Made by a program: the position numbers and the translations under genes
Notes under the pieces: model-generated
What the model was told of the DNA's origin: nothing
The model's database searches: none
What the model saw: the letters and a program-made list of their open reading frames with translations, nothing else
Shown here: in pieces, positions 2,770 to 12,769 of the stretch
How positions within the stretch are numbered: the stretch's first letter is position 1
How the letters are laid out: each line of letters begins with the position of its first letter
NCBI GenBank assembly: GCA_050633245.1
Contig: JBOEGD010000032.1
Coordinates: forward strand, 59,405 to 123,404
Reading direction: 5' to 3'
Length of the DNA stretch: 64,000 nucleotides
Source: Calditrichia bacterium
GTDB lineage: Bacteria > Calditrichota > Calditrichia > RBG-13-44-9 > J075

Positions 2770-2864
2770 CGTTTAGGCTTAGAATACTTCGATAGTTGCA
2801 ACGCCTGTTAAAACGTCCTATATTTCCGGCCAATTTTATTTTGGGAAGCAATAGAAGGTTTATC

Positions 2865-4271
2865 ATGTCTGTAGATCATACACGTTCCTGGCGACATCAA
2901 ATTCCGCCGACTGTTGAAAAACGCCTCCAACGTCCGGAACTTCTGGATCGGCTGAAGGAGGGAGTTGCTCTTCCGGTAACCATTCTTTCTGCGCCGGCAG
3001 GCTATGGAAAAACAACGTTGCTTAGTCAATGGGCGGCCGATGCACCGAAAAAGATCGGCTGGTTAACCCTCGACCGTTTTGACAACGACCCGGCAGTTTT
3101 TCTTGAACATTTTGTTCATACCATGCAGCAGATTCAGCCATCCATCGGTAATGCTGTGTTCAAAATGCTTCAGGCTGAAAAAAAGCCCAAAATGGAAGAT
3201 GTCTTGAAACGCATGTTGGATGATGTTGCATTGGTTATGTCCGATTTTGTAATTGTTCTCGATGACTATCACGTTATCTACAGCCCGCCAATTCATGCGA
3301 TGATGACCTTTATTCTTACTTATCTGCCGCCGCAGATGCACGTTGTAGTTGCCGCGCAAACCGATCCGCCGTTTGGCGATCTTGCTCGTCACCGTTCCTA
3401 CGAGCGTCTGATGGAAATTCGCACGCCTTATTTTGGTTTCTCTGTGGATGAATGCGAAAAGTTATTAAAGCAGCAATTTCAAATAATGCTCCCCTACGGG
3501 CCGATCTCAGCTATTGTGGAGACGGCAACGTCCCGTCCGATAGCGATAAACTATGTGGCACTCCTCTTGGAAGGAGACGACAAGCCAGTAACATTTGTCG
3601 ATCAATATGAGAAATCTGATGGTGACTCGTTGGTGATGCCATTCGATGCTCTGCTGGAAAAAGTGGATGCTGAGCTACAGGATTTTCTGCGAGATATTTC
3701 AATACTCGATGTGTTTAATGCCGATGTTGCCGCTGCTGTATCGGGTTGTTCTGATGCAGCTGAAAAGCTGGTAATGCTTGCGGGAAAAGGCCATGTTGTT
3801 GAATACGTTGATAGCGATAAAAAGTGGTTCCGATTGCACTCATTGGCAAGGGAGCAATTAAACCTGCGTTTGCATCGCACAGGGCTTGAACACCTTGCTG
3901 AAATTCATGCTCGCGCCGGAAAGGTCTTTGCTGTTTTGGAAATGCCGTTTCCCGCATTCTTTCACTTTTCCGAAGCGGGTGAATTTGATTTCGCCGCGGT
4001 GTTGGTTGAACAATACAGCGCATCCTGGTTACAAAAAGGACGCATGTTGAGCATCTTGAATTGGCTGAAAGTTATTCCGGAAACAACGTTGGAAAAACGA
4101 CCACAACTTGCTATTACGTCGGCATGGGTTGCTCTGGTTGGCGGGGATGTCGAAAAAGTAGCTAAGTATTTAGAACTGGCAGACGCTGCAAAGGGGGAAG
4201 GCGAAGCGGCTTCAAAGATTGCCGAAAATATTGATGCGATACAGCATTTTATATCGCAGCGTCAACAATAA
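2865..4271 (+). CDS. MalT-family (STAND) ATPase with TPR-like region, lacking C-terminal LuxR HTH
   Basis: RPELLDRL, Walker A APAGYGKTT, WLTLD..DND, Walker B VLDDYH, FRLHSL; protein ends at about 470 aa with no HTH. Confidence 0.8.
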   Translation: MSVDHTRSWRHQIPPTVEKRLQRPELLDRLKEGVALPVTILSAPAGYGKTTLLSQWAADAPKKIGWLTLDRFDNDPAVFLEHFVHTMQQIQPSIGNAVFKMLQAEKKPKMEDVLKRMLDDVALVMSDFVIVLDDYHVIYSPPIHAMMTFILTYLPPQMHVVVAAQTDPPFGDLARHRSYERLMEIRTPYFGFSVDECEKLLKQQFQIMLPYGPISAIVETATSRPIAINYVALLLEGDDKPVTFVDQYEKSDGDSLVMPFDALLEKVDAELQDFLRDISILDVFNADVAAAVSGCSDAAEKLVMLAGKGHVVEYVDSDKKWFRLHSLAREQLNLRLHRTGLEHLAEIHARAGKVFAVLEMPFPAFFHFSEAGEFDFAAVLVEQYSASWLQKGRMLSILNWLKVIPETTLEKRPQLAITSAWVALVGGDVEKVAKYLELADAAKGEGEAASKIAENIDAIQHFISQRQQ

Positions 4272-4273
4272 CG

Positions 4274-7192
4274 TTACTCTCGCGTTGCACCGATTACGCG
4301 ATGCAGAGTTTCCAGCAGGCGTTCCGCAGTATATGGTTTTTGCAGAAACCCATCGACACTGCGTCCCAATAGCTCCGAAATCTTACTGTCTTCCATATAA
4401 CCACTTGATGCGATTATCTTTACGTGCGGATTGATTTTTCGAAGTGCACGAATGGTTGCGGCCCCATCCATTACCGGCATCATCATATCTGTAATAACAA
4501 TCGGTATTGCTTCCTGATGTTGCGCATAGAGCGCCACGGCCTCGGCGCCATCGTGTGCTAGCATTACGGAATAGCCATAGGTCTCAAGAGTCTCACGGGT
4601 GATTTCCAGGATTGATGTTTCGTCATCGACAACCAGAATGACTTCGCCCTTACCGGCTCGCATACCTCCTTCTTCTTCGATGATCTCTTCAGCTTCGAAA
4701 TCGACCAGTGCTGGTAAGTACACGTCAAACGTTGTTCCTTCTCCGGAACTGCTGTTAACGTTTACAAACCCTCCATGGCTGCCCACTATTGCCGATACGG
4801 TTGAGAGACCGAGTCCTGTTCCCTTGTCCATTGTCTTCGTTGTGAAGAATGGGTCAAAAATTTTATTGATAATATCCGCTGGGATTCCAGTGCCGCTATC
4901 CTTCACGCGAATGGTAACGTACGGACCTGGACGTGCATCAAGATGCACGCGGTTGGCCTCGGTAGTCAATTCCTGGTTTTCTGCGATTAGCTGGAGTTCT
5001 CCGCCCTCCGGCATTGCATCGCGTGCATTTACACATAAATTTAGCAAAACCTGATGGAGTTGCGTAGCATCGCCGGAAACGCTCCAAAGTGAACGTGGGA
5101 TACTACTTTCGAGTGCGACAGAGCGTGGGAATGTCTCTTCAATGATTTGCCGAATCTCATCCAGTATTTGCGTCATTTGCAGTGGAATGCGCTCACCTTC
5201 GACGCCACGAGCAAACGTCAGAATCTGCTTAATCATATCAGCACCGCGTTTTACATTGGCTTCGATGGTGTCCAGAATTCGCTGGCTTTTATTGTCATCA
5301 AAACGCACCTGTAGAATTTGTACGGCGGTTAAGATTGGTGCAAGTACGTTATTCAGATCGTGTGCAATACCGCCGGCCAGCGCGCCGATACTTTCCATGC
5401 GTTGAGCTCGTAGAAATTGAGATTCGATGCGACGTTTTTCGGTAATATCAGTATTGACAACCAGAATCGACTTAGCGCTGCCGTCATTTCCGCTCACCAG
5501 CGTCCAGCGGCTTTTGACGATTATTTCTTTGCCCTCTTTGGTCATCTGCGAGAGCTCACCCTGCCACTCTTCATGTTCCAAAACCGATCTTCTGCTGGAG
5601 ATAAACTGCTCTGAGTGATTCATAAAAAGAAGTTCGAAGGCATTCGTGCCAATTACTTCTTCCATTTTCCAGCCGTATAGCCTTTCAGCACTTTTGTTCC
5701 AATAGATAATATGATCATTCAGGTCGCATACCATAATGGCGTCCTGCGCTTTGTCCAAAAGCGCAGCCTGTTCACGAATTTGTGCAGCGGCCCGCTGTCT
5801 CGCTGAAATGTCGCGTGCGATAGCCATAATTGTTGGTTTATTCTTAAAATCGAAAAGGTGCGCACTCACTTCAACTGGAATCTGGTTTCCCGAACGAGTA
5901 AAGAATGTATCTTCATAGAGCAGGTAACGCTCTTCCTGAATCTCTGATAAACGTGACAAAAATGTTGATTCGTCTACCTGTAGAGCAATTTTACGATAGT
6001 CTGCCTTCAACAGTTCTTCTCTGCTAAAGCCCAGTTTGCGGCAGGCAACATCATTTACCTCAATGAACGGTGTCAGGTCGCCATCCGTACGCTGACGATA
6101 GACGAGCACGACATCATTCCCACTGTTAAACAGAATGCGGTATTTTTCTTCGCTTTCCAGCAGCTGTTCTTCGGCGCGTTTACGTACTTCAATTTGCTCT
6201 TTTAAAATACGGTTTGCCTGTGAAAGCTCGGCAGTGCGCTCCTCAACGCGATGCTCCAGACCATCTTTTGCCCGCTGCAGCGCAATTTCGGACGTCTGCA
6301 AATCTGCCGTGCGAGCCAGGACGCGTTTCTCCAGTTCATCCCGTGCATTTTTAAGCTGTGTTTCAACAGCTTTTCGCTCACTGATATCTGAGATAATACC
6401 AAACGATCCACAAACCTTACCATCTGAATTAGTAACGGGCACTCCGCTAATGGATACCCAAATTAGCGATCCGCTTTTTTGCACCATTTGAATTTCGTAC
6501 TGATCGGATACTCTTTTGGTGCGCAGCTTGTTTTTATTGCGAATAACCTTCTGCTCGCGCCGATTAAACAAAACAGTGTAACCGACCTTGCCAATGAGTT
6601 CGTCTTCGCTATAGCCAAGCATTTCGCAAATCCGTGGGTTAACGAAGCGAACGACATCATCATTATCTACGATCATTAAGCCTTCCTGCATATTTTCAAT
6701 CAGCGTACCGTATTCGCGGAGAGTTTGCTCCGTCTGCATGCGTACACTTAAGTCTTCTATGAAGAGCAGGATACTGGTATTACCTTCATAATCAATGGGC
6801 CAGGCTGTGGTTTGTAGCGGTAATTTTTCGCCACTGGAGCTTACCGCATACAATCTTGCTGTGCTCGCACTTTGCTTTTTAAATGCTTCCTGACATAGGC
6901 TTCTGAAAAGACGAAGTTGCTTTGGGAAAACAAAAGTAGTTTTCTGTTGAATGATTTCCTGCTTGGCATAACCCAGAAGATCAGTAGTTTTTTTGTTGAC
7001 GTCGAGAATTTTACTGTTATCGGGATTGATAATCAGGACGGCTTCACGACATAAATCGAATAGAGTTTGAAAGCGCGCGTTGCTACGAAGAAGTTCTTCC
7101 TGAAGTATTTCCGGATGATTGTGAGAGGAGGCTTCGTTTTGAGCCGGAACAGATGCAATAATACGCTGAAGTGGAGACTTGAATGTTTTCAT
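4274..7192 (-). CDS. Cytoplasmic multi-PAS hybrid sensor histidine kinase / response regulator
   Basis: Four PAS-like segments, H-box [39 protein letters not shown]-terminal REC (VVDDE, TDMMMP, KP). Confidence 0.95.
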   Translation of the reverse strand: MKTFKSPLQRIIASVPAQNEASSHNHPEILQEELLRSNARFQTLFDLCREAVLIINPDNSKILDVNKKTTDLLGYAKQEIIQQKTTFVFPKQLRLFRSLCQEAFKKQSASTARLYAVSSSGEKLPLQTTAWPIDYEGNTSILLFIEDLSVRMQTEQTLREYGTLIENMQEGLMIVDNDDVVRFVNPRICEMLGYSEDELIGKVGYTVLFNRREQKVIRNKNKLRTKRVSDQYEIQMVQKSGSLIWVSISGVPVTNSDGKVCGSFGIISDISERKAVETQLKNARDELEKRVLARTADLQTSEIALQRAKDGLEHRVEERTAELSQANRILKEQIEVRKRAEEQLLESEEKYRILFNSGNDVVLVYRQRTDGDLTPFIEVNDVACRKLGFSREELLKADYRKIALQVDESTFLSRLSEIQEERYLLYEDTFFTRSGNQIPVEVSAHLFDFKNKPTIMAIARDISARQRAAAQIREQAALLDKAQDAIMVCDLNDHIIYWNKSAERLYGWKMEEVIGTNAFELLFMNHSEQFISSRRSVLEHEEWQGELSQMTKEGKEIIVKSRWTLVSGNDGSAKSILVVNTDITEKRRIESQFLRAQRMESIGALAGGIAHDLNNVLAPILTAVQILQVRFDDNKSQRILDTIEANVKRGADMIKQILTFARGVEGERIPLQMTQILDEIRQIIEETFPRSVALESSIPRSLWSVSGDATQLHQVLLNLCVNARDAMPEGGELQLIAENQELTTEANRVHLDARPGPYVTIRVKDSGTGIPADIINKIFDPFFTTKTMDKGTGLGLSTVSAIVGSHGGFVNVNSSSGEGTTFDVYLPALVDFEAEEIIEEEGGMRAGKGEVILVVDDETSILEITRETLETYGYSVMLAHDGAEAVALYAQHQEAIPIVITDMMMPVMDGAATIRALRKINPHVKIIASSGYMEDSKISELLGRSVDGFLQKPYTAERLLETLHRVIGATRE

Positions 7193-7340
7193 AGCGGTGA
7201 ACCGTCTTTACCGAAGATCAATAATAAAGATCATTTTCTAAAATATAGCAGTGTTGAGAAGAAAGATTGTGAGGAAAACGACGATATGCGAAATAGTTCG
7301 CATATCGTCAAGATTGTGCTGTTTTATGAAATAGCGGAGT

Positions 7341-9383
7341 TTACTCCACCGTCGCAAGATTTCGATCGAGAACCTGCCGGATCTGCTCAACTACTTTTTT
7401 CGGTGAATAGGGCTTTTGTATAAAGTCATTTATACCGGCCATCTCCATGCGTGTCTTAAGCTCCGGATCGAAGTATCCGCTGGCAAATACTGCTTTTACT
7501 CCCGGCTCAATAGCCTGCATTTCCGTAAAGGCTTCAAATCCACTTTTCTCTGGTAGTCCCGAATCAGCAAAAACAAGATCGATGGATTCACGTTGCTCCT
7601 CAAAAACACGAACGGCTTCTTCACCGTCTCTGGCGACAAGAATATTATATCCGTTTCGTTCAAAAATTGTTGATAACAGATTCACCAGCATATGTTCATC
7701 TTCTACAATAAGAATGGTTTCCGTGCCTGTCGTTGGAGCCAGTGCTTGTCGTTTCTCTTGTTTGTCTACGGAAGATGTGGCCACTGGTAAATAGATGTGG
7801 AAGCTGGTTCCGTGGCCCAACTCGCTTTCCAATTGGATAAAGCCGGCATGATTGCGAATAATGCCGTAAACCATAGCTAATCCTAACCCGGTTCCTTTAC
7901 CGTGCTCTTTCGTTGTAAAAAACGGCTCGAATATCCGCTGCTTTGTTTCCGCATCCATACCGGTTCCATTATCAGAAACAGTAATGTGAGCATGTGAGCA
8001 CTTTTGAGCTTCCGGATTCAGCTTTATCATCTCATCAGCGGAAATGGTTGTCGTGTGAATCTTTATAATGCCCCCACCGGGCATCGCATCTCTTGCATTG
8101 ACGCATAGATTTAGAAAAATTTGATGAAGCTGATTTTGGTCACCCCAAATTGGAGGAAGCTTTTCAGCAAGCTCGAGGTTGAATAATATGGTTTTGGGCA
8201 GTGTCCCCCCAAGCATCAGAGTTAAATCGCGAACTGTTTGATTCACTTTAATAGGCTTGAACTTGGCGTCCGACTTTCGTGCAAAGGTGAGAATTTGTTC
8301 AACCAGGCTTGCTCCTCTTCCAACTGCTTGATGAATTGCGCTGATACTTTCATCCAGTTGGCTGGACAAAGGTTTATTTTGTCTTATTAGAGACACGTGG
8401 CCTAAGATAATTCCCAGAATGTTGTTGAAGTCGTGGGCGATGCCACCGGCCAGCGTTCCAATACTTTGCATTTTTTGAACCTGAAGAAGCTGTTCTTTAA
8501 GTTTTGTCGGTTCAGTATTATCAAAAATATAACCGCGAATTTCAACAAGCTGTCCGTTTTTATCGAGGATGCCACTGACATTTTGAATGATATAAACAAT
8601 ACTGCCGTCAACTTTCTTAAGCTTACGCTGGTCGTATTCCAACTTGCTGTCTCTGGTTACAGCTTGTAAAAAACTTTCGTAGTCCTTACGCGAATTATAG
8701 AGTGACTGTAGCCTTTTGTGCGCCACATCGGTAGGATTGCTAAAGCCAAAGATCGATGCAAATGCCGGGTTACATGATAATATCTCGCCATCGGGATTGG
8801 CAACAAAATCTCCGGTCAGATCTTCCAAAAAGAAGCGTCGATAGTTTTCTTCGCTCTTTTTGAGCGCTGCTTCTGCTTTGCGCTGTTCAGTTACATCTCT
8901 GGCGATACCTTCGATCCGTTTTGTGCCCGTTTCACCCTCAATTAAAATGCTGCGATATTGAAAGATACGTGGATTTCCATTTTTGCTAAGAAGCGACAGA
9001 TAGCCGTTTGCCTGACGATTCTCAGTAATGTTATCGAGATAGGTTTGCAGCAGCAACTTATCAGCGGGCGTATTCGGAATGAGTTCAAATAACGATTTAT
9101 CAATGAGCTCACGCACGGAATAACCGAGTTCGCGGGTTGCAGCAGCATTCATTTGCTGAATAATGCCCTCATCAGAGTGCGAGAAAACGATATCTGAAAT
9201 GTTATTAAACAGTTCGCTATACTTGCGCTCACCATCAATGAATATCTGTTCTTTTTCTATAGCGTCATTGATGTGGCGTTTTCTGTAAAGCGAAAGAGCA
9301 ATTACAATTGCCCAGGCTAAAATGATGAGTGTGATACTCGCAAATAAAGTGAATTGCAGAATATCTATTGATGTGATGGACAA
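7341..9383 (-). CDS. Membrane-anchored PAS hybrid histidine kinase (one N-terminal TM, 2 PAS, HisKA, HATPase, REC)
   Basis: N-terminal hydrophobic helix, [42 protein letters not shown]. Confidence 0.93.
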
Positions 9384-10003
9384 AACAGCCCTCCGGCATA
9401 GAGCATGTTAGCAATTGTTGTTACCCCCCACGATACAGACCAGACGACAAGAACACTGGCAGGAGATAGGTGGATAATTTGGTTACTGAAGCAAAAGATT
9501 GGAATTGTTCCAATAAAATAGGTTAGCACACCTGCTGAGATCCAAAACCTGCTGTCTGTATATTGAGATGTATAATTGTCCATGTAAAGTTTGACAAGTG
9601 TATGGACGGCTACTCCAACCAGAATAACGCGTGAGATAGACGAGGTAACGGAGTCGAATTTACTGAGAGTTCCCAGGTAGAATGTGGCAAAAACACAAAT
9701 GAGGCTAAAGATGATTGCCGTTGTAAGCATTATACTCTGAACCTTTTTATCTTCCTGCCAAAAGGCAAAGGCACTCATAAACAACGCAAACTCGATAGGC
9801 GTATAGATATGGTGTAGCCATAGATTTTGGGTTCCGCTCATAGCAAGATAAACACCAACGAAATCGACGATGGCGTGTAAAATGAACAGGCAGATCAAAA
9901 TTTTCATCGGTATCGAGGCTTTACGAAAGAAATAAAGCCCGATCAATGATAGCAGTACGTCAGTGATCAACTGCAAAAAGAATAAGATTGGTAGATCGTT
10001 CAT
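9365..10003 (-). CDS. 7-TM integral membrane protein, putative receptor partner of the adjacent kinase
   Basis: Seven hydrophobic helices; motifs NLWLHHIYTPIEF and FWISAGVLTYF; overlaps the kinase start by 19 nt. Confidence 0.8.
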   Translation of the reverse strand: MNDLPILFFLQLITDVLLSLIGLYFFRKASIPMKILICLFILHAIVDFVGVYLAMSGTQNLWLHHIYTPIEFALFMSAFAFWQEDKKVQSIMLTTAIIFSLICVFATFYLGTLSKFDSVTSSISRVILVGVAVHTLVKLYMDNYTSQYTDSRFWISAGVLTYFIGTIPIFCFSNQIIHLSPASVLVVWSVSWGVTTIANMLYAGGLFCPSHQ

Positions 10004-10217
10004 AATTGATCCAGAGTCCTTTCATCAAAGAAAATGGATTTAGATGACACGCAACATGTATAATATGCGTTAACTATACAAAAGGCATGTGACCCAATAG
10101 CAGGATTTGTCTTTGTGATTTTTTCAAGGTAACAAGGGCGCAAGACACTATCCTCCATGATTATGTCTTCAGTGGTTTTTTGATAATCGGCAGGAATGAA
10201 GAAAAAGTTTAGGGTAC

Positions 10218-10258
10218 AAAAAAACAGGGACTTTCACATTGACAATGGAAAGTCCCTG
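10218..10258 (-). terminator. Rho-independent terminator of the 10300-10743 gene
   Basis: cagggactttc...gaaagtccctg stem preceded by an A7 run on + (U-tract on -). Confidence 0.8.
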
Positions 10259-10299
10259 ATGGTACTAATAATCTTCCGGGCAGGAGAGGGTTTAGCGAA

Positions 10300-10743
10300 T
10301 TACTTAGCTAATTGTGCTTTCGCCATGGACACATTGCTGTTTAGGGGGTTTTCGTCAAAGCAGAACGGCGGGCATGGTAGAGCCATTTCAGCAAGCTCAC
10401 CGTGAATCATATCCCGGTTTTCTTTGTCGACGCCAACGAGAACTAAAACATTCTCGCCGTCAGCATTTAGTCCGTGGTAATAGCGAAGACCCATTACACC
10501 ATCCTGGCTCATAATGCGATCAATGGCGGCACGTGCAAAAAAGCCACCCACCTTAGTTTCGCCCTCATCCATTTGAGAACGATAGCGAGCCGTAAACTCG
10601 GCTGCTTCATCGAGGCTTACAACATGTGTATCCTCGAAGGTAACCATCTTAGAATTATCTTCTGCACCCTCTGTCAGCGCCCACATCGTAACGCTGAAAA
10701 ACAGTACAGTAAGAATTGCTAATGTTATTTTTGTTGCTTTCAT
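10300..10743 (-). CDS. Small secreted protein with PCPPFC motif, unknown function
   Basis: Signal peptide (MKATKITLAILTVLFFSVTMWA), SLDEAAEFTARYR, GGFFARAAIDRIMSQDGVMGLRYYHG, LVLVGVD, PCPPFC; GGAGAGG RBS upstream on -. Confidence 0.85.
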   Translation of the reverse strand: MKATKITLAILTVLFFSVTMWALTEGAEDNSKMVTFEDTHVVSLDEAAEFTARYRSQMDEGETKVGGFFARAAIDRIMSQDGVMGLRYYHGLNADGENVLVLVGVDKENRDMIHGELAEMALPCPPFCFDENPLNSNVSMAKAQLAK

Positions 10744-11236: not shown

Positions 11237-12769
11237 CTAAATATCAAATTTAATGCCCTGAGCGAGTGGTAAGGAATGTCCATAATTAATGGTGTTGGTT
11301 TGACGACGCATATACGCTTTCCAAGCGTCTGAACCAGATTCTCGTCCACCACCTGTTTCTTTCTCACCACCGAATGCACCACCAATCTCAGCACCCGACG
11401 TACCGATGTTTACGTTGGCAATCCCACAATCCGAACCGGCCTGGGAGAGGAACATTTCGCTTTCCTGAATGCTATCAGTGAAAATCGCGGAAGAGAGTCC
11501 CTGGGTTACATCGTTTTGCAAAGCAATCGCGTTTTCAATGCCGCCAGTATATTTCATCAGGTATAGAATAGGAGCAAATGTCTCTTCTTTGACAATTTTA
11601 AAGTCTGGTTCAGCTTCAACAATTGCGGGTCTTACATAGCAACCAGATTCAAATCCTGCGCCTTCCAATACTTCATTACCACAGGCAATTGTAGCGCCTT
11701 CCTTCTGAGCATGCTCTAGTGCTTTTTTATAGGCCATAACAGCATGTGTATCGATAAGCGGACCAACGTGATTATTTTCATCAAGCGGTGAACCAATTCT
11801 AAGGCTGGAATACGCCTTAACCAGAGAGTCTTTTAAGCGATCGTACATCGACTCGTGAATAAATAGTCTGCGTGTGCTGGTACAGCGCTGTCCGGCGGTT
11901 CCGACTGCGCCAAAGACCACGGCGGGAATGGCCAGTTTCAGGTTTGCATTCGGAGAAATAATAATGGCATTGTTGCCACCAAGCTCAAGAATGCTTTTGC
12001 CAAAACGACGTGCCACGGTTTCACCGACATGCCTGCCAACGCGAATTGAACCAGTGAAGGAAATAAGCGGGACGCGCTTGTCATTAATCAGCGTTTCACC
12101 GATTGTGTCATTATCGCCGATCAATAGGGTGAATACGCCTTCAGGGATATCGTTTTCTTTTAGGACATCCTGAAGAATATGCTGGCAGGCAATCGCAGTC
12201 AGCGGAACTTTTGGAGAAGGTTTCCAGAGGTTTACATTACCACATACGGCAGAAATCATGGCATTCCAGGCCCAAACAGCTACCGGGAAATTGAATGCGG
12301 TAATAGTACCGCAAATTCCAAGCGGATGATACTGCTCATACATGCGGTGGCTCGGGCGTTCCGAGTGCATGGAAAGACCGTATAGCTGGCGTGATTGCCC
12401 AACAGCAAAGTCGCATATGTCGATCATTTCCTGTACTTCGCCGAGACCTTCCTGAAGCGATTTCCCCATTTCGTAGGATACCAGTTCGCCCAGAGGCTGT
12501 TTGAAGTGGCGAAGGCGCTCACCTATTTGGCGAACAATTTCACCACGCAACGGAGCGGGGATATTCCTCCAGTGTAAAAATGCTTCCTGAGACTTGGCAA
12601 TAACTGTTTCGTAATCGCTCGCGGATGCCTTGTAAACAGAGGCGATTTGTTTTCCGTCTACGGGAGAAGTAACAACAAATTCACCCTCAGATGTGGTCTC
12701 GAGCCAGTTGAGACCGGTAGAGGCGCCAAAATTCTTTTCTTTTAATCCGAGTTCCTGTAAAATCTTCAT
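11237..12769 (-). CDS. Aldehyde dehydrogenase family 7 (piperideine-6-carboxylate / alpha-aminoadipic semialdehyde dehydrogenase-like)
   Basis: [67 protein letters not shown]. Confidence 0.92.

Follow-up and report, generated by a model that had tools for sequence, protein, structure and literature searches.

The window, as we call the whole stretch of 64,000 nucleotides that was analysed, carries, in three genes, one copy of a bacterial signalling cassette that is widespread and so far undescribed. In such a cassette one to three small PCPPxC-domain proteins are followed by a stand-alone seven-helix membrane (7TM) protein and then by a signalling protein with a single N-terminal helix. We consider it reasonably likely that the 7TM protein serves as input subunit, in the membrane, for a kinase without an outside domain, and that the small protein is an optional, fast-evolving accessory. 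Many kinases lack an outside sensor domain, while to our knowledge the way in which they receive signals is understood for only a few, and the cassette suggests an unnamed stand-alone 7TM family as their missing input. In Bacteroidota and their relatives the partners of this family are single-helix kinases of a large class, mostly of the HisKA_3/NarL type. The cassette also brings in two candidate new protein families (the 7TM protein, and a conserved-Cys small protein with no known fold), yields a testable subunit model for the 7TM protein and the kinase, and poses a puzzle, namely that the small domain is predicted to lie outside the cell in some relatives and inside it in others.

Layout of the cassette and its linkage across genomes

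In the list of open reading frames (ORFs) all three genes lie on the minus strand, in the shared orientation that a preliminary description of this DNA had given them. The features are as follows:

10300..10743, minus strand: small PCPPxC-domain protein, 147 aa (ORF; core domain roughly residues 33-130)
10672..10743, minus strand: signal-peptide-like segment, residues 1-24 of the small protein (two Lys, then a hydrophobic stretch ending ...MWA-L)
10360..10377, minus strand: P-C-P-P-F-C motif, residues 123-128 of the small protein
10218..10258, minus strand: intrinsic terminator of the small gene (11-bp G+C-rich stem, loop, U7)
9365..10003, minus strand: stand-alone 7TM protein, 212 aa, predicted N-out/C-in (ORF)
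7341..9383, minus strand: hybrid histidine kinase, 680 aa, TTG start (ORF, Pfam, NCBIfam)
9365..9383, minus strand: 7TM stop and kinase TTG start overlapping by 19 nt (GGAGGG 5 nt upstream of the TTG)
7279..7310, minus strand: terminator-like hairpin 3' of the kinase gene, 14 pairs

The 147-aa protein has the signal-peptide-like N-terminus (a reading of hydrophobicity), the PCPPFC motif near its C-terminus and the terminator of its own that had been ascribed to it. This terminator, a hairpin followed by U7 that lies 45-85 nt past the stop codon, folds at -21.8 kcal/mol (z -4.48), with 0 of 200 shuffles as good, and was missed by a simple terminator scan because its loop exceeds the limit of that scan. 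A gap of 296 nt separates the small gene from the 7TM gene, and the separate terminator and this gap fit a regulated target gene as well as they fit an accessory. It is conceivable, though on balance we think it unlikely, that the small protein works together with the 7TM protein, the latter being for instance a transporter or an enzyme of the membrane and the former its soluble thiol partner, and that the adjacent two-component system controls the expression of both, so that the three genes would be linked because of regulation and not because of sensing.

The three families keep company across phyla far more often than chance would give. A pattern scan that took one genome from each species found 19 small-gene loci in Bacteroidota, Ignavibacteria, Marinimicrobia and Calditrichota; a 7TM gene comes next in 15 of the 15 with downstream sequence, and the remaining 4 end at contig ends. 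Among 251 sampled Bacteroidota genomes 43 of the 47 small-protein matches adjoin a 7TM match, 42 of them on the same strand at <=300 nt and one at ~1 kb in reversed order. For Calditrichota the linkage is present in 17 of 26 informative loci (28 loci in total, with an adjoining 7TM gene in 17, none in 8, one ambiguous case and two at contig ends). The recurrence of such small proteins beside 7TM proteins and kinases in Bacteroidota, which had been put forward earlier, holds in the genome scans.

Both proteins also occur apart, which would suit regulated targets. Three loci (L005, L037 and L038) have 7TM-kinase pairs without the small protein, and no small-family match was obtained in genomes G057 (88% complete) and G060 (97% complete). 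Conversely the small protein is present in three genomes (98%, 95% and 85% complete) that have no 7TM match by profile, and must therefore have some function of its own. A literature search on the motif, on stand-alone 7TM accessory proteins and on Bacteroidetes neighbourhoods, with supplements outside its scope, returned nothing on the cassette; what it did bring up concerned conopeptides, polyphosphate probes and unrelated comparative genomics.

The 7TM protein and its kinase

The 212-aa protein has seven hydrophobic segments, in agreement with its earlier description as a 7-helix membrane protein, and matches no Pfam or NCBIfam family at E<=0.1; its 7-helix Atlas model is confident (pTM 0.86). 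An exhaustive search (E<=1e-3) returned a family of 1137 clusters at 50% identity, the best 150 of which are all 119-291 aa long, and showed that the mere 2 proteins found by a single-sequence word-based search reflect a limit of that tool. The family is present in 57 of the 251 sampled Bacteroidota genomes. Pfam, run on 121 members at E<=0.05, found 30 families, and among the best 25 of these 30 none was consistent; EutH matched two members and each other listed family one, and we regard these as chance matches.

Per sequence, averaged over the same 121 members, loops 1, 3 and 5 and the C-tail carry 2.8, 2.7, 2.3 and 1.4 Lys+Arg, and the N-tail and loops 2, 4 and 6 carry 0.2, 0.7, 0.9 and 0.6, from which an N-out/C-in topology is predicted. 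The loops are very short, there is no soluble domain, and polar residues (E71, Y162 and N199) are conserved inside the bilayer. Among the Atlas neighbours of the model, three rows belong to its own family (TM 0.88-0.90). Of the seven others, six are 7TM regions at the N-terminus of histidine kinases or of 7TMR-DISM_7TM/GerE proteins, at TM 0.64-0.70, a likeness to fused sensor modules that helical bundles easily reach, and the last is Wntless-like, an unrelated 7TM protein from eukaryotes. One neighbouring Atlas cluster, without a common Pfam family, bears the automatic name 'Lysoplasmalogenase'.

The kinase has one N-terminal TM helix followed, by Pfam, by PAS domains at residues 54-168 and 193-291, HisKA at 309-370 (E 4e-9), HATPase_c at 414-535 (E 3e-24) and a receiver (REC/Response_reg) at 557-668 (E 3e-21), and with HisKA, HATPase_c and receiver in one protein it is a hybrid two-component histidine kinase. 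It had been called sensor-less, with one TM helix and no extracellular sensor domain; the helix and the missing outside domain stand, but the term itself does not, since there are two cytoplasmic PAS domains.

The reported overlap of the kinase start with the 7TM stop amounts to 19 nt. Kinase orthologues (E 1e-148 to 1e-219) come after the 7TM gene in related genomes, and the genome of the window has a second, paralogous 7TM-kinase pair on contig C10, also with a 19-nt overlap; the same overlap recurs in L056 and L038, and one of 13 nt is present in L095 and L096. In 18 of 20 fetched Bacteroidota loci a single-TM kinase directly follows the 7TM gene, and in a nineteenth there is only a NarL-type regulator. 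Partners confirmed by Pfam include TM-PAS-HisKA-HATPase-REC proteins, TM-HisKA_3-HATPase kinases with a NarL regulator, TM-HisKA kinases whose regulator is of the NtrC type, and, as a one-component protein, TM-PAS-PAS-GerE; in Bacteroidota the usual partner is a short TM-HisKA_3 kinase with a NarL-type regulator after it. All that these partners have in common is that they have one N-terminal TM helix and no outside domain, and translational coupling to single-TM proteins of several transmitter types fits the earlier suggestion that the 7TM protein is the separate receptor subunit of the kinase.

Since the ORFs overlap by 19 nt in different frames, they could in principle be one 8-TM sensor kinase split by a frameshift, through gene fission or an assembly artefact. 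This is very hard to reconcile with the conservation of the split and the overlap in many genomes from several phyla, with the lengths of the best 150 of the 1137 7TM clusters (all 119-291 aa), and with the Shine-Dalgarno-like GGAGGG before the kinase start. Moreover the 7TM C-terminus is predicted inside, whereas the kinase N-terminus has to be outside if its catalytic part is to be cytoplasmic, and the two could not simply be joined.

The same data bear on the possibility that the small protein and the 7TM protein are targets of the two-component system. Conserved polar residues inside the membrane are found in transporters and membrane enzymes too, and the automatic name of the neighbouring Atlas cluster would agree with an enzyme. 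However, a 7TM gene that nearly always lies directly upstream of the kinase, and overlaps it, has the arrangement of co-made subunits; the partner varies over transmitter types, including the TM-PAS-PAS-GerE protein, and keeps only the single helix and the absence of an outside domain; and neither YhhN nor a transporter family is among the families listed for the 121 members. We prefer to see the 7TM protein as an input subunit, because it is predicted to be N-out/C-in, has short loops and polar residues within the membrane, and is modelled with a fold near that of fused 7TM input modules.

The small PCPPxC protein

By hydrophobicity the small protein starts with two Lys and ~18 hydrophobic residues, with a maximum of 2.35-2.54 over 15 residues in the cluster of the window's protein. 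Its n- and h-regions are present, and the candidate Sec site (...T-M-W-A/L) has Ala at -1 and Met at -3; the segment could be an uncleaved anchor. Some relatives have, by eye, AXA-type classical signal peptides, and a hydrophobic N-terminus was detected in 38 of 132 relatives and was absent from 94. A flipped 7TM topology was rejected as the cause of this division into exported and cytoplasmic small proteins, as the charge bias of the 7TM protein is alike in 29 of 29 loci (10 with exported and 19 with cytoplasmic small proteins). With the small domain predicted both outside and inside, and with a constant 7TM topology, one fixed binding face cannot explain both.

C124, P125 and C128 are invariant in alignment A1, and across sets of 26 and of 73 sequences C-P..C does not vary. 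The invariant residues of the family are G, F, Q, Y, G and C-P..C; PCPPxC is its best-conserved part, although the second Cys is missing from some two-domain members. The protein matches no Pfam or NCBIfam family, and a profile search gave 367 family matches, for which the names seen were all 'hypothetical'. An AF2 model of the core, built from 73 sequences, reached pLDDT 79.6, with lower confidence in the PCPPFC tail (62-67), and superseded a first model of the full 147 aa from 15 sequences (pLDDT 57). With the core model Foldseek gave 0 matches against the PDB at E<=0.001 (best E 0.048, TM 0.25) and VIA-align none at Z>=5 among 48,161 chains (best Z 3.8); CopG (Z 3.7, 50 residues) and YpmB/PepSY (Z 2.4) were at noise level and were dropped as folds. 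A match to a known unrelated enzyme, which would have spoken against a signalling role, was not among the results of these searches against solved chains. Tandem small genes, in 2-3 copies, are frequent in cassette loci, small genes diverge much faster than 7TM genes, and the ORFs upstream in 'small-less' loci retain little beyond a C-terminal CPPxC.

The preliminary description had proposed an Agr-like system, in which the small protein, or a disulfide-closed PCPPFC peptide, is a secreted ligand that the 7TM protein reads and signals to the kinase. Several observations would suit such a ligand, including the signal-peptide-like N-termini of the window's protein and of the 38 relatives, some with AXA sites, the gene's own terminator, the tandem copies, and the strong linkage to the 7TM protein and the kinase. 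Small genes also outpace 7TM genes in divergence, as ligand-receptor specificity pairs can, and even the 'small-less' ORFs keep CPPxC. Nevertheless we find a secreted ligand improbable, and so too the wider claim that the stand-alone 7TM family reads a PCPPxC protein cue and relays it sideways to single-helix kinases. The 94 relatives without a hydrophobic N-terminus are not accompanied by a change in 7TM topology, and instead of a short precursor there is a conserved, folded domain of ~100 aa. As a ligand peptide PCPPFC fares no better: the motif is the most conserved part and not a variable core, some members have lost its second Cys, and there are 7TM-kinase pairs without the small protein. 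Furthermore the loci have no conserved AgrB-type peptidase, exporter or other maturation gene, and the small family occurs in genomes without the 7TM protein. Overall an accessory part seems to describe the small protein better than a secreted pheromone does. If it were a ligand after all, the exported cue in versions like the window's might act between cells, ligand-receptor specificity would be set by the small genes through their fast divergence and their tandem copies, and the cassette would be a so far unnamed protein-ligand/7TM/kinase pathway common in FCB-group bacteria.

Agr itself (AgrD, AgrB, AgrC, AgrA) is alike in that a Cys-containing product is encoded beside a polytopic membrane protein and a kinase, and differs in precursor size, AgrB family, kinase class and regulator class. 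In place of an AgrD-like short precursor (~46 aa, with a variable Cys core) there is a 147-aa protein with a conserved ~100-aa domain; AgrB is not matched by the window's 7TM protein in Pfam at E<=0.1 and is absent among the best 25 of 30 families for its 121 relatives; and in place of an AgrC-type multi-TM kinase with a LytTR regulator there is a kinase with one TM helix and HisKA, with NarL/GerE or NtrC regulators in related loci.

Proposed working and likeness to known systems

With the linkage, the domain architectures and the charge-bias topology observed, we infer how the cassette proteins touch each other, which way regulation runs and what chemistry the Cys pair supports, as follows. 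The 7TM protein would pass a conformational signal sideways to the lone TM helix of the kinase, to which the PAS domains may contribute cytoplasmic cues. The working part of the small protein is probably its flexible C-terminal PCPPxC tail, whose two Cys might take part in redox or metal chemistry. For the version in the window we would expect the small protein to work in the periplasm, either as a co-sensor or by modulating the 7TM-kinase pair through feedback, and not as a diffusible pheromone, in a manner that we liken to the action of SaeP, CpxP and MgrB on their kinases. A complex prediction for the 7TM protein (A4) with the small domain (A3) gave a score of 0.00 and a mark of 0.32, which counts neither for nor against binding.

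In CpxP-CpxA and MgrB-PhoQ the kinase receives feedback from a small envelope protein whose gene belongs to the two-component system or lies near it, and MgrB relies on periplasmic cysteines; unlike the cassette, these systems have no 7TM partner, and there is no homology. SaePQRS of Staphylococcus aureus shares with the cassette the logic and the order of a small protein (exported, in the window putatively so), a polytopic membrane protein and a kinase without a real outside domain; SaePQ reportedly modulates the phosphatase activity of SaeS, and SaeQ has fewer TM helices than the window's 7TM protein. The operon encodes the auxiliary lipoprotein SaeP, the membrane protein SaeQ, the intramembrane-sensing kinase SaeS and the regulator SaeR (PMC3748130 and PMC5083920). 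No sequence relation to it was found, the window's small and 7TM proteins being without a Pfam family; most small-protein relatives in the cassette are predicted to be cytoplasmic, and the cassette belongs to the FCB group, not to Firmicutes.

In LiaFSR (membrane protein LiaF, HisKA_3 kinase LiaS, NarL-type regulator LiaR) an accessory membrane protein is likewise encoded directly upstream of an intramembrane-sensing kinase, and the usual Bacteroidota partner in the cassette is TM-HisKA_3 with NarL. Unlike LiaF, with its C-terminal Toastrack domain, the cassette's membrane protein consists of 7 TM helices without a soluble domain, and a third, small protein is present; the LiaF/Toastrack (DUF4097-like) family was found neither in the window's proteins nor among the families listed for the 121 relatives. 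LiaF exerts inhibitory feedback on LiaS (PMC11237479), and the 7TM protein that this paper deals with is a different one from the cassette's.

Sensory rhodopsin, a stand-alone 7TM receptor, signals sideways to the separate transducer Htr via TM-TM contacts; the cassette transducer differs in having one TM helix and in being a kinase or a transcription factor, and neither a retinal-binding Lys motif nor a rhodopsin family was matched in the 121 7TM members, among the families listed. The 7TMR-DISM (PF07695) and HisKA_7TM (PF16927) kinases are alike in coupling a seven-helix input module to a kinase or LuxR-type output, and unlike in that the cassette 7TM is a separate protein and the transmitter has a TM helix of its own. 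No significant sequence relation to 7TMR-DISM_7TM or HisKA_7TM was obtained for the 121 members among the families listed: PF07695 is absent from the best 25 of 30 (E<=0.05), and HisKA_7TM matched 1 of 121 members at E 0.0038, below threshold (17.5 bits vs a cut-off of 28.6, partial model). The predicted 7TM structure has a TM of 0.70, within the range easily reached by helical bundles, to a cluster carrying PF07695, and in the window the putatively exported domain, the 7TM protein and the transmitter resemble the three parts of a 7TMR-DISM receptor spread over separate genes.

Genes of the cassette in the window

The three co-oriented genes of the preliminary description were all recovered as ORFs on the minus strand of the window:

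10300-10743, minus strand: small protein, 147 aa (ORF)
9365-10003, minus strand: seven-helix (7TM) membrane protein, 212 aa (ORF)
7341-9383, minus strand: hybrid histidine kinase, 680 aa, TTG start (ORF)

The small protein starts with two lysines followed by around 18 hydrophobic residues, and carries the motif P-C-P-P-F-C at residues 123-128. Shortly 3' of its stop lies a hairpin followed by U7 (-21.8 kcal/mol, z -4.48, with 0 of 200 shuffles as stable), and on this terminator side 296 nt separate the small gene from the 7TM gene. The 7TM stop and the kinase start overlap by 19 nt, with GGAGGG placed 5 nt 5' of the TTG. In the Pfam analysis the kinase has a single TM helix, a pair of PAS domains, HisKA, HATPase_c and a receiver. 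It lacks an outside domain, but the earlier label of sensor-less does not hold, given the PAS domains. With Pfam and NCBIfam, neither the small nor the 7TM protein gave a match at E<=0.1. The names carried by close relatives place the genome in Calditrichota.

Just downstream of the cassette kinase, and separated from it by a terminator-like hairpin (7279-7310), the window encodes another hybrid kinase (4274-7192, minus strand; 972 aa), which has 3-4 PAS domains together with HisKA, HATPase_c and REC but lacks a TM helix. Three related genomes (L054-L056) have a similar kinase, also without a TM helix, after the cassette, and the 972-aa protein is a possible phosphorelay partner. The gene immediately upstream of the small gene encodes an aldehyde dehydrogenase (11237-12769, minus strand; Pfam Aldedh, E 1e-131). 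Four other Calditrichota genomes preserve this order; in one of them (G056, locus L063) the small gene is not followed by a 7TM gene. Elsewhere in the window, a 491-aa ORF (2796-4271, plus strand) gave weak, sub-threshold matches to the AAA_16, STAND NTPase and NB-ARC models, and may encode a STAND-type regulator.

Linkage of the small, 7TM and kinase genes

The main result of this study is gene linkage: the association proposed earlier between the small, 7TM and kinase families was observed in three separate samples, one drawn across species, one from Bacteroidota and one from Calditrichota. The first came from a pattern scan in which each species was represented by a single genome and an alignment of Bacteroidota-type small proteins served as query; it returned 19 loci, four of them ending at a contig edge just after the small gene. 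In each of the 15 remaining loci, one to three tandem small genes precede the 7TM gene (profile E 1e-36 to 1e-68), and the gene after it encodes a protein whose N-terminus carries a TM helix. When Pfam was run on six of these downstream partners, three were TM-PAS-HisKA-HATPase-REC proteins; one (L091) was PAS-HisKA-HATPase-REC, with no TM helix seen in an ORF whose start is cut by masked bases; one, from Marinimicrobia, was TM-HisKA_3-HATPase followed by a NarL-type regulator; and one was a one-component TM-PAS-PAS-GerE protein.

In an even sample of 251 Bacteroidota genomes, the 7TM family was present in 57 (119 matches) and the small family in 30 (47 matches). Nearly all the small matches (43/47) adjoined a 7TM match, 42 on the same strand within 300 nt and one about 1 kb away in reversed order; of the four unlinked matches, two belonged to a genome in which the 7TM family was not found and two lay on different contigs from the 7TM genes. 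We inspected 20 loci, 12 with and eight without a detected small gene, and in 18 a single-TM kinase directly followed the 7TM gene, while the other two had, respectively, a regulator alone and neither kinase nor regulator. Four of the 18 kinases were PAS hybrids and 14 were short and had a NarL-type regulator after them; the best seed match of the short kinases was HisKA_3 in all but L098. Pfam bore this assignment out for one of them (L105) and found no HisKA_3 in L098. Upstream sequence was available for seven of the eight loci apparently lacking the small gene, and in four of these seven an upstream ORF had a CPPxC-like motif at its end. Two of these four ORFs, plus a third without the motif, were detected by a second-round HMM (E 1.6e-6, 5e-4 and 8e-3), so the small family is under-counted, and its divergence is much faster than that of its neighbours.

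The third sample covered all 86 Calditrichota species genomes, of which 16 had the small family and 13 the 7TM family, the latter count coming from a single-sequence query. The 43 small matches formed 28 loci: 17 with an adjacent 7TM gene, eight without, one ambiguous and two at contig ends. Three genomes shared the gene order of the window, including the second, TM-less hybrid kinase downstream. At six loci a two-domain small protein and the 7TM gene faced a convergent PAS-HisKA_3 kinase and a NarL-type regulator (Pfam-checked in four of the six), and at one locus, from another Calditrichota family, genes for the small protein, the 7TM protein, a TM-HisKA kinase and an NtrC-type regulator all overlapped.

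The 7TM-kinase pair also occurred without the small gene, at L037, at L038 and at L005 (7TM gene at G000:C10:196527-197135), a further pair encoded by the same genome as the window, in which the genes for the 7TM protein (208 aa) and its TM-PAS kinase have the same 19-nt overlap and no small gene lies upstream. Two genomes (88% and 97% complete) had the 7TM protein and no small-family match; in three others (98%, 95% and 85% complete) the small protein was present, the profile found no 7TM protein, and the small gene sat after a glycogen-synthase-like gene (named by eye). The small protein thus has some function of its own. Since each partner was found without the other, we consider the 7TM-kinase pair to be the core, with the small protein a frequent but dispensable third part.

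Several loci depart from these arrangements. At L064 and L065 (G068, contigs C79 and C14) the small protein has a signal peptide and its gene comes after one for a 288-299-aa protein with 5-6 TM helices, which at L064 is a distant 7TM-family member (E 1.5e-9); because there are integrase-like and phage-like ORFs (by eye) in the neighbourhood, a copy of this gene pair may be mobile. L061 (G061:C1:499-501 kb) holds a degenerate cassette, its small and 7TM genes both broken into overlapping ORF fragments, adjoining an intact convergent kinase and regulator pair. At L060 (G062 C54) the small-7TM pair faces not a kinase but a membrane protein of 945 aa that combines PDZ, GAF and SpoIIE phosphatase domains. 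The divergent neighbour of the L005 pair resembles a 3-hydroxyacyl-CoA dehydrogenase (by eye).

The two protein families

The small-family profile matched 367 proteins at E<=1e-3, from 3222 candidates. Among the 120 matches listed, from Calditrichaeota, Bacteroidota, Gemmatimonadetes and unclassified bacteria, every name given by the source was 'hypothetical protein' and none carried a precomputed Pfam domain. In 73 sequences the core positions G35, F37, Q48, Y57, G72 and C92-P93...C96 were invariant, and H8, R55, D79 and P94 nearly so. We compared the architecture of 132 relatives (15 from an earlier search and 117 new ones among the listed profile matches): 38 had a hydrophobic N-terminus, 33 were bare domains, 28 had a conserved, non-hydrophobic N-extension of about 35 aa and 33 were two-domain forms, some of which have lost the second Cys or the entire motif in one or both domains. 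An AF2 model from the 73 sequences predicted a small alpha/beta domain (pLDDT 79.6), less confident in the C-terminal tail with the Cys motif than elsewhere; this model had no Foldseek match in the PDB at E<=0.001 (best TM 0.25) and none at Z>=5 in an exhaustive VIA-align comparison over 48,161 chains.

Tandem small genes took different forms. In the window's own genome, two paralogues (L002; G000:C18, 1168-1836, plus strand) of 89 aa without the Cys motif and 117 aa with PCPPWC, neither with a signal peptide, have no 7TM gene nearby. At L073-L087 (Bacteroidota/Ignavibacteria) the genes come in two or three copies, the last consistently more divergent, and the proteins have a conserved Pro/Arg-rich N-extension instead of a signal peptide and end exactly in ...NPLNS; at L075, the product of the convergent gene after the kinase has a lamin-tail domain as well as a sorting domain for type IX secretion.

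At 50% identity the 7TM family comprised 1137 clusters with E<=1e-3, of which 290 reached E<=1e-10. Among the 1137, the best 150 were all 119-291 aa long, indicating stand-alone proteins, and 121 members gave no consistent Pfam match. Lys/Arg counts in these 121 sequences placed loops 1, 3 and 5 and the C-tail inside and the remaining segments outside. Conserved residues included three at the outer end of helix 3 (N60, W62, H65), E71 inside that helix, R152-F153-W154 where helix 6 begins on the inner side, and Y162, N199 and C208. The Atlas model of the window's protein was confident (pTM 0.86). Three of its structural neighbours were its own family; of seven others, six were N-terminal 7TM regions (TM 0.64-0.70) of histidine kinases or 7TMR-DISM_7TM/GerE proteins and the seventh was a eukaryotic Wntless-like protein. 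Because helical bundles align easily, we take this modelled likeness to fused 7TM input regions as a lead only. In Bacteroidota, two or three tandem 7TM genes can follow one small gene (G279:C7:162399-165258 and G175:C1:110658-112417).

Reading of the parts

The partners of the 7TM protein have in common a lone N-terminal helix and the absence of an outside domain, and nothing else; their outputs include a hybrid kinase, HisKA_3 and NtrB-like kinases and a LuxR-type DNA binder. Together with the conserved gene overlap, this is the pattern expected of a separate input subunit, and the earlier idea that the 7TM protein is the kinase's receptor subunit probably holds, judging from the overlap and the partner architectures. 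An origin of the two genes by simple splitting of an 8-TM kinase is ruled out by topology, since the 7TM C-terminus is predicted to lie inside and the kinase N-terminus must be outside.

Sensory rhodopsin couples through the membrane to Htr as a separate input subunit. The 7TM protein and its kinase can be likened to this pair, and to LiaF and SaeQ with their kinases, by analogy and not homology; at the sequence level, membership in the Agr, 7TMR-DISM, HisKA_7TM or LiaF families fails. SaePQRS (PMC3748130, PMC5083920) and LiaFSR (PMC11237479) are the closest working analogues. The kind of system, accessory proteins feeding kinases without a sensor domain, is already known; this cassette and both its families appear to be undescribed, since no Pfam or NCBIfam model covers them and literature searches found no description of the cassette. 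It is, in our view, a solid signalling module, broadly distributed and as yet without a name, and the experimental path to follow is clear.

The mechanism that we infer for the cassette overall would have the 7TM protein act as a separate input subunit, coupling to its partner through the membrane, and the small protein, by means of its Cys-bearing tail, as a co-sensor or feedback modulator. We favour such an accessory role over that of a pheromone, and the secreted, Agr-like ligand first proposed now seems unlikely. The small domain is predicted to lie outside in ~29% of the relatives and inside in the rest, and the 7TM topology was identical in 10 loci with an exported and 19 with a cytoplasmic small protein; the same domain on both sides of the membrane with an unchanged 7TM topology is explained by none of the models. 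Across these two groups of loci, the cytoplasmic C-terminal Cys of the 7TM protein (C208) was kept in 9 of the 10 with an exported small protein versus 5 of the 19 with a cytoplasmic one.
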